From an uncultured Ruminococcus sp. (GTDB lineage Bacteria; Bacillota; Clostridia; Oscillospirales; Ruminococcaceae), in the NCBI GenBank assembly GCA_946534605.1, contig CAMNCU010000003.1, positions 954 to 64,953 on the forward strand: a DNA stretch of 64,000 nt, read 5' to 3'. The notes beneath the pieces were generated by a model. The model had not been told where the DNA came from. It ran no database searches and saw nothing but the letters and a program-made list of their open reading frames with translations. Numbering within the stretch: position 1 is the first letter of the stretch; the number at the start of each line of letters is the position of its first letter. Position numbers and translations under genes: made by a program. This document shows, piece by piece, positions 48,588 to 52,116 of this stretch.

Positions 48588-49505
48588 TTACTGTACCCGG
48601 ACAAGCAGGGTTTCTGTCAGGGCGTGAAGGAATTCACGGGTTTCGGATTCCGGAAAGCTGCTGAGTATGCCGTGCGCCCGTGCCGTCAGTTCCGCGGCGC
48701 GGATTTTCGCCTTTTCGATACCGAGCAGCGTCACAAAGGTCTGCTTGCCTTCTTCGGCATCGCTTCCGGCAGGTTTTCCGAGCTGTTCGGAAGTGCTTGT
48801 CACATCCAGAATATCATCAATCATCTGGAATGCCAGTCCCACAGCCAGACCGTAGCGTCCGGCGGCTTCGGCTTGTTTCGGCGTACCGCCGCCGCAGACA
48901 ATCCCCATCTGACAGGAAGCTTTCATGAGTGCGCCGGTCTTGCCCAGACACATGGCTTCCAGCTGTTCCGGGGTGACGGTCTCCGCAGTCTCGAACAGCA
49001 TGTCCAGCATCTGACCGCCCACCATGCCGGAAGTGCCTTCTTCCTGGGCGAGAATCTGAATCAGCTGTGTTTTCTGTTCCGGGGTGAGGGCTTTGTCCTC
49101 GGCAAGAATCTGGAACGGGGCGCAGATTAAGCCGATTCCGGCGAGAATCGCTGTCGCTTCGCCGAATGCCTTGTGACAGGACGGCTTTCCGCGCCGGAAA
49201 TCGTCGTTGTCCATTGCCGGAAGGTCATCGAAAATCAGGGAAGACGTATGTGTCATTTCCATTGCTGCCGCGGCAGCGGCTGCCTGTTCCGGAGAGCCGC
49301 CGCAGAGTTCGCAGAAGGCGTAAACCATAGCCGGACGAATCCGTTTTCCGCCGGCGGTCAGGGAGTGGCGCATGGCTTCAAACAGAGAAGCTGCCGGAAT
49401 CTGACGCTGTTCCGCCTGACGGGAAAGACTGTCCACGACTGCTGAAAGATGTTGTTCTGTCTGTGAAGCGTAAGTTTGCAGACGAAGTTTCTGGTTATCG
49501 TTCAT
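48588..49505 (-). CDS. ispA: Farnesyl/geranyl-diphosphate synthase portion with its own candidate start
   Basis: 305 aa from ATG 49505, preceded by AGAGAGGAA. Polyprenyl synthase motifs FDDLPAMDNDDFRRGKP and FQMIDDILD. Confidence 0.7.
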   Translation of the reverse strand: MNDNQKLRLQTYASQTEQHLSAVVDSLSRQAEQRQIPAASLFEAMRHSLTAGGKRIRPAMVYAFCELCGGSPEQAAAAAAAMEMTHTSSLIFDDLPAMDNDDFRRGKPSCHKAFGEATAILAGIGLICAPFQILAEDKALTPEQKTQLIQILAQEEGTSGMVGGQMLDMLFETAETVTPEQLEAMCLGKTGALMKASCQMGIVCGGGTPKQAEAAGRYGLAVGLAFQMIDDILDVTSTSEQLGKPAGSDAEEGKQTFVTLLGIEKAKIRAAELTARAHGILSSFPESETREFLHALTETLLVRVQ

Positions 49506-50420
49506 GATGATGTTCCTCTCTTTATCGCAAGCCCGGACGGTGAGACTGCCGTCGGGCAGAATGACTCTTAACATGCTGTCCGCCGGAATCTGACGGACAG
49601 AAACAACCGGTTCACCTGAAAGTGTCAGGATTTCCGGGGAATGATGACTTGTGGCGAGTTCCGCCGCCGCCGAGGGCGTGGAAGCCCGTAAATCCGCGGC
49701 TTTATCGGTCAGGGTGAAGTCTGTCTCGTGTCCGACGGCAGAAATCACAGGGGTCTGACACGCGCTGACCGCCCGGACAACGGCTTCGGCATTGAAGACG
49801 CGCAAATCTTCCGCAGAACCGCCGCCGCGTCCCAGAATCAGAACGTCAAACTGCTGTGAATCTGCCGTTTGCAGTGCCTGGCAGATTTCGGCTTCTGCGT
49901 GAATGCCCTGTACATGTACCGGAAAGACGACCGCTTCCGCCGCCGGAGAACGCCGTTTCAGGATATGCAGAATATCCTGTAGTGCCGCGCCCTGTGCCGA
50001 GGTAATCACGCCGATTTTCCGGGGATTCTCCGGAATTTTCTTTTTTCCGGATTCGGTCAGAATGCCTTCGCTGTGAAGTTTCTGTTCTTTCTGCTGAAAG
50101 CCGCGCTGTACGCTGCCGATACCCTGTAATAACATATCCGTCACCCGAAGCTGAAACGTTCCCGAAACCGGATAGAAATCCGCATTGGCGGCGGCAATCA
50201 CCTGCAAGCCGTTTTCCGGCTGAAAGCGCAGACGCTGTGCCAGATGTGCGAACATGACCGCCCGGACAGAACTCTCCTCATCGCGGAGAGAAAAAAACAG
50301 ATGTCCTTTTTCTTCCCGGTGCAGATTTGCGATTTCGCCTTCGGTCAGAAGCAGCTGTAATTTCCGGTTTTTCCGGATGAGCGTTTCTGCCTGCCGGTTG
50401 AGTTCAGTGATACTCAGCAT
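48588..50420 (-). CDS. xseA: Single open frame joining a shortened exodeoxyribonuclease VII large subunit (XseA) to farnesyl-diphosphate synthase (IspA)
   Basis: N-terminal ~305 aa carry an XseA OB fold plus catalytic core (LILGRGGGSAEDL, GHETDFTL, ASTPSAAAEL). After ...VRACDKERNII the frame continues with no stop into MNDNQKL... (IspA). Start MLSITELN at 50420 chosen by similarity to XseA N-termini. Confidence 0.6.
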   Translation of the reverse strand: MLSITELNRQAETLIRKNRKLQLLLTEGEIANLHREEKGHLFFSLRDEESSVRAVMFAHLAQRLRFQPENGLQVIAAANADFYPVSGTFQLRVTDMLLQGIGSVQRGFQQKEQKLHSEGILTESGKKKIPENPRKIGVITSAQGAALQDILHILKRRSPAAEAVVFPVHVQGIHAEAEICQALQTADSQQFDVLILGRGGGSAEDLRVFNAEAVVRAVSACQTPVISAVGHETDFTLTDKAADLRASTPSAAAELATSHHSPEILTLSGEPVVSVRQIPADSMLRVILPDGSLTVRACDKERNIIMNDNQKLRLQTYASQTEQHLSAVVDSLSRQAEQRQIPAASLFEAMRHSLTAGGKRIRPAMVYAFCELCGGSPEQAAAAAAAMEMTHTSSLIFDDLPAMDNDDFRRGKPSCHKAFGEATAILAGIGLICAPFQILAEDKALTPEQKTQLIQILAQEEGTSGMVGGQMLDMLFETAETVTPEQLEAMCLGKTGALMKASCQMGIVCGGGTPKQAEAAGRYGLAVGLAFQMIDDILDVTSTSEQLGKPAGSDAEEGKQTFVTLLGIEKAKIRAAELTARAHGILSSFPESETREFLHALTETLLVRVQ

Positions 50421-51339
50421 AGCGCAGAGCGGCATAAACCGCAGTTCCGGCGGCGTTATCGCGTGAAAATTCCGGTTCGGCAAAGGCGGTTTCTGCCGGA
50501 ACGGATTCTTTCAGGAAGCTTTGCAGATACTGATTCGACATCACGCCCCCGGCATAGAGTACTGGAATCCCGGAATGCTGTTCCAGGGCTTTTTCCGTCA
50601 TGGCGCGGAGAACTTCCCCGACTGCCGAAAGACAGAATTTCGCGACTTCCGGCTTTTCGTGCTTCTGCAGCATGTCTCTGCACTGGTTCTCCAGTCCCGA
50701 AAGACAGCAGTCAAGCCCTTTCATAACGGGCTTGTACCGGAACTGCTTCCGGCTTTGTGAAGCTGATTCTTCCAGAGCCGCGCCGCACGGGAACGGTAAG
50801 CCCATCATCAGCCCGACACGGTCAATCAGCTGACCGGCTTTCAGGTCGAGCGACGACGATACCGGCAGAATGTGCAGAAGTCCGGCTTCGTCCGGCTGAC
50901 ACAGAACACAGTCCGTCGTGCCGCCGCTGACGTGAAACGCCAGAAACTCACGGTTCAGCCAGTTCAGCTTTCCGGCGGAATACAACGCCGCCAGAATATG
51001 TCCGTTCTGATGGCTTGTCCCATAAACCGGAATCCCTAACGCTTGTCCCGTCATCTTCGCCGCGCCTTCTCCGCAGAGAAAACACGGCATGTATGACCCT
51101 TCTGTGTTCCGGGGTCTGACGGAAACGCCAATCGCCGAAAGTTCCGGAAGTGCCAGTTCTGCCAGTACTTCCGGAAGCTGTACCGTATGATGAAAGACCG
51201 CGTCACTCTGCCGGAGTCCCTTTTCTCCCGGCTTGACCGGAAGCAGTTTCTTCGCCTGTAATATCTTCCCCGTTCCGGTATCGTAAACCGCCGCCGAGGT
51301 CGTATAATTACTGGTATCCAGTCCGAGAAAGACGCTCAT
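50404..51339 (-). CDS. Kae1/TsaD-like (peptidase M22 / ASKHA fold) protein
   Basis: 311 aa with N-terminus VFLGLDTSNYTTSAAVYD and an actin-like ATPase pattern. This is not a canonical TsaD sequence, so the call is at family level only. Confidence 0.45.
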   Translation of the reverse strand: MSVFLGLDTSNYTTSAAVYDTGTGKILQAKKLLPVKPGEKGLRQSDAVFHHTVQLPEVLAELALPELSAIGVSVRPRNTEGSYMPCFLCGEGAAKMTGQALGIPVYGTSHQNGHILAALYSAGKLNWLNREFLAFHVSGGTTDCVLCQPDEAGLLHILPVSSSLDLKAGQLIDRVGLMMGLPFPCGAALEESASQSRKQFRYKPVMKGLDCCLSGLENQCRDMLQKHEKPEVAKFCLSAVGEVLRAMTEKALEQHSGIPVLYAGGVMSNQYLQSFLKESVPAETAFAEPEFSRDNAAGTAVYAALRYAEYH

Positions 51340-52087: not shown

Positions 52088-52116
52088 ATTTTAACACAAA
52101 ATCATAAGAATGTCAA
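52088..52116 (-). promoter_or_regulatory. Sigma-A-type promoter for the asp23-nusB... genes
   Basis: Minus strand: TTGACA (52116..52111), 17-nt spacer, TAAAAT (52093..52088). Confidence 0.55.

Follow-up and report, generated by a model that had tools for sequence, protein, structure and literature searches.

Can the large subunit of exonuclease VII (ExoVII) persist as a working protein once the helices to which its small subunit binds are gone, and what does it mean if its reading frame then runs on into the gene of an isoprenoid enzyme? These questions are raised by a stretch of 64,000 nucleotides (the window; positions 954 to 64,953 of contig CAMNCU010000003.1) in the metagenome-assembled genome of an uncultured Ruminococcus sp. 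(GCA_946534605.1; 2.55 Mb, 133 contigs, 90.6% complete; referred to here as G000). Read directly from the DNA, window positions 48588..50483 on the minus strand are a single open reading frame (ORF) that consists of an XseA part and an IspA part. The original prediction for this locus, made from the letters alone, held that the XseA part lacks its XseB-binding coiled coil, that there is no xseB gene between xseA and ispA, and that the frame reads through into a complete IspA; as explanations it offered a bifunctional fusion, an additional internal start for IspA, or decay of xseA. We consider it probable that the rod-less gene, which we call xseA', encodes a lineage-specific minimal ExoVII large subunit that is independent of XseB and kept by purifying selection, its fusion to IspA being incidental.

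Pfam annotation of the 631-aa frame assigned residues 23–117 to tRNA_anti_2, residues 142–365 to Exonuc_VII_L, and residues 367–594 to polyprenyl_synt. The scores for the XseA families all exceeded their cut-offs (TIGR00237, 334 bits with a cut-off of 180; PF02601, 213 with 35.9; PF13742, 82 with 27), and the IspA half matched the farnesyl diphosphate (FPP) synthase model NF045485 with 295 bits (cut-off 275) over residues 344–629 and PF00348 with 205 bits. Foldseek returned the XseA chains of 8TXR, the E. coli ExoVII structure, at the top, and then FPP and geranylgeranyl diphosphate (GGPP) synthases with TM scores of 0.86–0.91; those of the IspA half to E. coli FPPS (1RQI) and CrtE (7MY0) were 0.88–0.90. 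By homology, the N-terminal half is a member of the XseA family, and the C-terminal half, chain-length specificity aside, is an FPP synthase. The ispA part (48588..49505, on the minus strand like every feature given below) is complete according to Pfam, NCBIfam and Foldseek, with 305 aa and a stop codon, and it carries a first (DDLPAMDNDD, 49200-49229) and a second (DDILD, 48804-48818) Asp-rich motif. In the XseA half, the N-terminal OB fold (PF13742) lies at 50133..50417, and an AlphaFold2 (AF2) model of the 615-aa product, with a mean predicted local distance difference test (pLDDT) of 85.7, predicts a beta-barrel for this region (strands 29–103, pLDDT 83–93). The catalytic domain lies at 49641..50108.

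The XseA half stops short of the full family profiles. The TIGR00237 match covers only positions 1–259 of 389 and the Exonuc_VII_L match only positions 2–211 of 315. In an alignment with E. coli XseA (PDB 8TXR_A), residues 10–271 are matched (phmmer E 1.3e-61), and the tail aligns weakly to residues 404–438. Because residues ~272–403 of the E. coli protein have no counterpart, the XseB-binding helical region of roughly 130 residues is absent, as had been predicted, and alignment with long XseA forms shows a clean gap of 110–145 residues at the helical domain. The scar of this in-frame deletion, which stands in the place of E. coli residues ~272–403, lies at 49638..49643, where ...AAELATSHH meets SPEIL.... 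The short C-terminal segment behind it is what remains of the XseA C-terminal domain (CTD): the 37-aa stretch SPEILTLSGEPVVSVRQIPADSMLRVILPDGSLTVRA (49530..49640), which runs from SPEIL to LPDGSLTVRA, is homologous to the CTD of long XseAs from this genus (hhalign, 97.5% probability, E 5.7e-12 over 42 columns). About 37 of about 60 CTD residues are left and the leading LDPLxxLxRGY motif is lost, and AF2 places ordered strands in the remnant (268–271, 288–293 and 296–301, pLDDT 75–85). The four residues D155, R205, H238 and D241 (E. coli numbering) are all aligned in the G000 protein, with codons at 49974-49976, 49827-49829, 49728-49730 and 49719-49721, respectively; all four are essential in E. 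coli XseA (PMC3439923).

To the claim that xseB is missing from between the two genes, a search of the G000 contigs with PF02609 added that none is present in the assembly (best E-value 0.15, within large ORFs), and no second xseA was found there either. Because both the helical platform for XseB and XseB itself were absent on testing, the G000 product is not a canonical ExoVII, a holoenzyme marked also by Mg-independent exonuclease activity on ssDNA. We then compared 25 species of the genus, G000 among them. Fifteen carry a long xseA (~400–445 aa), an xseB adjoining it, and ispA. In these 15 species and in 16 sampled species of the order (one per family) the gene order is nusB-(tsaD-like)-xseA-xseB-ispA-DUF212-dxs, which is the conserved nusB-xseA-xseB-ispA-dxs order invoked by the original prediction, joined by a tsaD-like gene and DUF212. 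Three species are fused, namely G000, G023 (71% identity) and G004 (64%). In two others xseA' has its own stop codon overlapping the ispA start (ATGA in G009, ATGAATGA in G017), and three (G010, G014 and G019) have no xseA, with a gap of 70–85 nt between the tsaD-like gene and ispA. The assemblies of the remaining two, G021 and G024, gave no match to xseA, xseB or ispA, and these species are unclassifiable because the locus is not assembled. xseB is missing in exactly the 10 species in which xseA is short, absent or unassembled, and present in all 15 others.

The xseB-less state has a single place in the history of the genus. In a tree of five concatenated proteins, in which G021 and G024 were not placed, the eight classifiable xseB-less species (G000 and seven others) form one clade with 100% support, and the short forms form one clade, also with 100% support, in the XseA gene tree. 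Comparison of orthologs also showed identical deletion boundaries in all 17 short sequences (...TPSAAAELAxxx followed by (Y/S)PEIL...), and the loss of helices and xseB first noticed in G000 is clade-wide. The comparisons show that the common ancestor of one subclade of the genus, a group of rumen-type Ruminococcus species, underwent an in-frame deletion of the whole XseB-binding helical domain together with deletion of the xseB gene, and that this left the OB fold, the catalytic domain and the CTD remnant of ~37 residues abutting ispA. Helix loss and xseB loss form a single ancient event common to the whole clade. The stem of the short clade is long, with 0.77 substitutions per site in the XseA tree as against 0.13 for this split in the tree of five proteins. 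Once the generally faster rate of XseA is allowed for, the excess is roughly two- to three-fold, and it would fit either adaptation to the absence of XseB or a spell of relaxed selection. After this pair of events, a burst of change in the retained domains, a long persistence and, later, two losses would likely have followed. In the tree the complete losses of xseA' are two independent events (G010; G014 and G019), and the gene is dispensable in these sister lineages.

The fused architecture recurs in independent assemblies, with about 12 protein clusters in all: G023, G004 and clusters P0002–P0010 (from NCBI, ENA and Logan; e.g., GCA_002449575.1 and SRR1222429). Unfused short forms are P0121, P0122, P0123, P0125, P0237 and the copy in G017. 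The 17 short sequences, at 55–84% identity, come from NCBI, ENA, JGI and Logan assemblies. A protein identical to that of G000 occurs in one other record, ENA ERZ28612959, which has 100% DNA identity over 7.8 kb and may stem from the same data. As the same architecture appears in independent assemblies, throughout the clade and with identical boundaries, we take it that it is not an assembly error.

To look for similar proteins elsewhere, 401 genomes of the order from 179 genera were surveyed, and in none but G000 did an intact XseA occur without XseB. The weak TIGR00237 matches that could have represented helix-less XseAs turned out to be fragments at contig ends, split matches in frames of ~400 aa beside xseB, or the remnant in G201. 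Two candidates for an XseA without XseB were rejected as well: in G329 the frame runs off the contig and the helices are present, and G383 is cut by a contig end. Among the best 120 matches of ≤350 aa to a 201-aa query in a database of 5.8 billion protein clusters, no helix-less XseA was found outside the short clade; this length-restricted search returned the clade members P0237 and P0238 and truncated calls of long forms. Triple XseA-XseB-IspA fusions, suggested by open-frame values of 761–892 aa, dissolved on reading the loci, where normal stops separate the three genes. These reported lengths disagree with the stop-to-stop frames in the DNA and are by themselves unsafe as evidence of fusion. 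P0012 (899 aa) and P0011 (521 aa), also candidates for such fusions, are spurious read-through calls with long out-of-frame low-complexity stretches, and they caution against taking domain lists at face value. Three observations were made beside these searches. ExoVII is sporadically lost elsewhere in the order, both xseA and xseB being missing from G162, G264 and G299 (≥90% complete). In G201, all that is left of xseA is a 93-aa N-terminal remnant, and xseB is absent. The gene call P0016 (889 aa, on an ENA contig of 4.5 kb) combines polyprenyl_synt with three 1-deoxy-D-xylulose 5-phosphate (DXP) synthase domains, an apparent IspA-Dxs fusion that omits DUF212.

Whether xseA' is still under selection was analyzed by the ratio of non-synonymous to synonymous substitution rates (dN/dS), with G000 and the species of P0002, both fused, as reference pair (dS 0.69, unsaturated). 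The ratio was 0.129 for the whole of xseA', 0.095 for the OB fold, 0.099 for the catalytic domain, and 0.475 for the CTD remnant with the tail. The neighbouring genes gave 0.162 (ispA), 0.126 (tsaD-like), 0.082 (nusB), 0.048 (DUF212) and 0.035 (dxs). Deeper xseA' pairs gave 0.10–0.24. For unfused xseA' the ratio was 0.155 in a pair of separate forms and 0.148–0.176 in pairs of a fused and a separate form. Every one of the 17 short XseAs retains D155, R205, H238 and D241. The motif GHETD has two variants, GHQKD and GHESD, each in one sublineage (P0007 with P0122; P0005 with P0006); H238 and D241 are kept, and the two residues between them differ. Fused or unfused, xseA' has an intact active site and evolves under purifying selection, and it is not a pseudogene. 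The suggestion that xseA is decaying is thus not borne out for this species, its dN/dS of 0.13 being like that of housekeeping neighbours and its catalytic residues being intact.

A dead relic could nevertheless be kept for reasons other than its own activity, as a translational leader or coupler for ispA, or because the fusion would be poisoned by an N-terminal half that failed to fold; its nuclease function would then have ended with XseB. We regard this as unlikely. It would agree with the inactivity of E. coli XseA without helices or without XseB (PMC3439923), with the fact that in every junction state translation of xseA' ends at or enters the ispA start, with the two outright losses of xseA', and with the complete loss of ExoVII elsewhere in the order (G162, G264 and G299). 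However, a leader needs no conservation of D155, R205, H238 and D241 in 17 of 17 sequences, nor a dN/dS of ~0.10 over the OB and catalytic domains that is as low as in housekeeping neighbours. In the lineages with the complete deletion, ispA comes 70–85 nt behind the tsaD-like gene and retains a Shine-Dalgarno (SD) sequence of its own, which shows that ispA does not depend on xseA'; and unfused copies, which are unable to poison IspA, are constrained nonetheless.

The minimal, selected XseA' is followed by a junction that explains how fused and separate states arise. As the original prediction stated, no stop codon closes the XseA part in G000 before the IspA ATG at 49505 is reached. The ribosome-binding motif GAGG (49515-49518) lies 9 nt upstream of this ATG, within an eight-codon tail (CDKERNII, 49506..49529). 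All six junctions that were read as DNA, fused or not, have an SD core (AAGGAG, GAGAGG or GTGAGG) 8–12 nt ahead of the ispA ATG, which supports the proposal of an internal IspA start. This core sits within the last codons of xseA', which accounts for the conserved K/R-E tail of the protein. ispA opens with ATGAACGA in G000 and with ATGAATGA in most relatives. Because ATGAATGA contains TGA in both other frames, xseA' either ends there or, in the third frame, reads through, and exactly three junction types were seen: a stop at ATGA, a stop at ATGAATGA, and read-through. Where xseA' has a stop, it lies within 8 nt of the ispA start. Closely related species differ by single-base changes in the A/T homopolymer runs of the spacer between SD and ATG: the fused G004 (GAGGAAAATAATTTTATG) has T4 where its separate relatives P0125 and P0237 (GAGGAAGATAATTTATGA) have T3, and the fused P0007 (AAGGAGAAAAATTTCATG) has A5 where its separate sister P0122 (AAGGAGAAAATTTCATGA) has A4. 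In the XseA tree there are five separate lineages, each alone among fused ones, which makes at least 5 switches. Parsimony on this tree slightly favours a fused ancestor (5 changes versus at least 6), and roughly two-thirds of lineages are fused.

A fusion polypeptide is thus encoded by the open frame, and the frame is real in that it recurs in ~12 clusters. Ribosomes that start at xseA' would produce an XseA'-IspA fusion of ~68 kDa, and those that start at the conserved internal SD and ATG would produce free IspA. Everything that the original prediction described was reproduced; of the three alternatives it offered, the first two, fusion and internal initiation, have support, and the third, decay, finds none in this species. 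The XseA'-IspA fusion is probably a tolerated, near-neutral by-product of a junction insensitive to insertions and deletions rather than a selected feature.

The fusion might instead be adaptive. The obligate IspA homodimer could substitute for the rod and the C-terminal barrel, or it could stabilize or regulate XseA', the fused state being the functional one and separation the first step to loss. The slight preference of parsimony for a fused ancestor and the fused state of about two-thirds of the lineages go in this direction, as do the loss lineages G010 and G014+G019, which stand beside lineages with separate forms. In four of five relative-rate tests (p 0.003–0.09), separate XseA' copies had roughly double the number of unique substitutions found in the fused sister, and the effect was weaker in the IspA controls. 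Moreover, dimerisation in E. coli depends primarily on the helical and C-terminal domains (PMC10835039), and the CTD remnant here is weakly constrained. On the other hand, unfused xseA' is clearly under purifying selection (0.155; 0.148–0.176 versus 0.129 in the fused pair), and this difference is so small that stronger constraint on fused copies was not accepted as a result and was kept as a weak hint. The at least 5 independent separations lasted to species-level lineages, the switches amount to simple slips in homopolymers of a spacer on which ispA initiation also relies, and AF2 leaves the arrangement of the two halves undefined (predicted TM score, pTM, 0.56; pLDDT ~61 in the 10-residue linker). 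Taken together, we find an adaptive role of the fusion doubtful. Its boldest version is that XseA' is active without XseB and that, in the fused species, the IspA homodimer has replaced the XseB-stiffened rod and the CTD barrel in holding two catalytic modules. We think this improbable; if true, a DNA-repair nuclease would be physically tied to an isoprenoid enzyme, and the 50-nm ExoVII rod would be a replaceable scaffold and not part of the catalytic mechanism. The weakest explanation, an artefact, would require that a stop or frameshift at the junction had been overlooked or that a wrong join had taken out the helical region together with xseB. It could appeal to the 133-contig metagenome-assembled genome and to the possibly shared data of ENA ERZ28612959, the sole other record with the identical protein, but it is hardly credible given the same boundaries and gene order in 17 sequences at 55–84% identity from NCBI, ENA, JGI and Logan, a G000 junction free of long homopolymers, and the clade-wide absence of xseB.

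This leaves the minimal large subunit, in which XseA' would, most likely, still act as a single-strand DNA nuclease that does not need XseB. Several points weigh against this explanation. E. coli XseA alone is inactive and seemingly misfolded, and all of its helix deletions are inactive; the engineered XseA delta267-393 ('delta123') does not bind XseB and is inactive in vitro (PMC3439923). In the 8TXR structure one XseB even provides a beta-strand that completes the catalytic fold (PMC10835039). Because the E. coli protein is inactive without XseB or helices, XseB-independent activity requires compensating changes in XseA', which must then exist, perhaps on the long stem branch. That stem, with its 0.77 substitutions per site, could reflect either adaptation or a phase in which selection was relaxed. 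The contribution of xseA' to fitness must be modest because three species have lost the gene. A role of the CTD remnant in dimerisation is doubtful, since CTD and tail evolve fast (dN/dS 0.475), and the excess rate of separate copies weakly hints that the fusion is not fully neutral. Finally, every genome in the comparison is metagenome-assembled.

The whole xseA'::ispA frame (48588..50483) has three possible starts, TTG 50483 (631 aa), ATG 50435 (615 aa) and ATG 50420 (610 aa). Of these, ATG 50435, which is the choice of the gene-caller, or ATG 50420 (MLSITELN) is likelier than TTG 50483. A consensus scan found no promoter-like site inside xseA' on the minus strand. The best promoter-like site of the operon, TTGACA-17-TAAAAT with TG at 52088..52116 (consensus scan only), is a near-consensus extended -10 candidate upstream of an asp23-like gene and is likely the start of a putative asp23-nusB-tsaD-like-xseA'::ispA-DUF212-dxs-tlyA operon. 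Directly before xseA' lies a 311-aa PF00814 (TsaD/Kae1-family) gene (50404-51339), the 3' end of which overlaps the xseA' start by 17–32 nt. In Bacillus the slot between nusB and xseA is occupied by folD; in G000 it holds this PF00814 gene, an order that is kept across the genus and the order. In G009 (L028, G009:C30, 871-2210) the tsaD-like gene between nusB and xseA' is missing, with the end of nusB at 1254 and the start of xseA' at 1275.

The locus is of interest first as a natural counter-example to the need for the rod, an XseA without rod or XseB that selection has kept in 17 or more lineages. Specialists on ExoVII would find it surprising, and it makes an open structural question testable, for the authors of the ExoVII structure call it unclear why XseA catalytic domains need a long helical rod decorated with XseB (PMC10835039). 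Sisters of the same genus with the long form (~50% identity) provide a defined set of substitutions that may confer independence of XseB, and XseA' is a small and probably more tractable protein for structural and biochemical study. The junction is instructive as well: a start sequence with stops in both other frames makes it indifferent to insertions and deletions, so that fused and separate states interconvert. There is also a practical side. NCBI names one of the fused proteins 'exodeoxyribonuclease VII large subunit' only, and when annotation pipelines label the 613-aa product as XseA alone, FPP synthase would be reported missing in metabolic reconstructions of these rumen genomes. We found nothing in the literature on XseA-IspA fusions or on XseA without XseB.

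Compared with known systems, XseA' stands closest to the large subunit of E. coli ExoVII. The CTD of E. coli XseA is a domain-swapped beta-barrel dimerisation element. The E. coli enzyme is an XseA4.XseB24 complex (8TXR; PMC10835039), with which XseA' shares a homologous OB fold and catalytic domain, the four catalytic residues and a C-terminal beta remnant. The E. coli protein has a helical neck and tail (~272–403) with six XseB sites, whereas XseA' lacks all of these and xseB is absent. Without helices and XseB, a 50-nm rod of the E. coli type, an XseB-provided strand and a catenated tetramer are impossible in the same way. The length of the ExoVII tail is known to vary in quantised steps of XseB sites, and the main text of the same paper makes no mention of a natural XseA with zero sites (PMC10835039). 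The naturally shortened ExoVII of Thermotoga maritima (PMC2566859, as cited in PMC3439923) is an active enzyme whose XseA has, like XseA', a reduced helical region, but it keeps two helices and XseB, and XseA' keeps neither. Poleszak et al. (2012) found the number of XseA genes equal to that of XseB genes in all complete genomes analyzed (PMC3439923), a rule that the short clade breaks.

On the side of IspA, the last 305 residues of the frame are a full FPP synthase like bacterial IspA (E. coli 1RQI, NF045485), with both Asp-rich motifs; bacterial IspA is normally encoded apart, whereas ispA of G000 follows xseA' without a separating stop. The closest parallel for the junction is the ATGA-type coupled gene pair turned into a fusion by a frameshift, and the sister lineages indeed show an ATGA or ATGAATGA overlap a single base away from the fused state. 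Here, however, at least 5 switches occurred in one small clade, both states persist, and both coding parts are constrained. The nearest relative in domain content is the engineered XseA delta267-393, which consists of the same set of domains as XseA' (OB, catalytic and C-terminal; neither helices nor bound XseB). The engineered form is inactive in vitro, while XseA' has been kept by purifying selection across many species after a stem of 0.77 substitutions per site. What is new here is a natural minimal XseA, a variant of a known enzyme, to which the fusion with IspA is most likely incidental.

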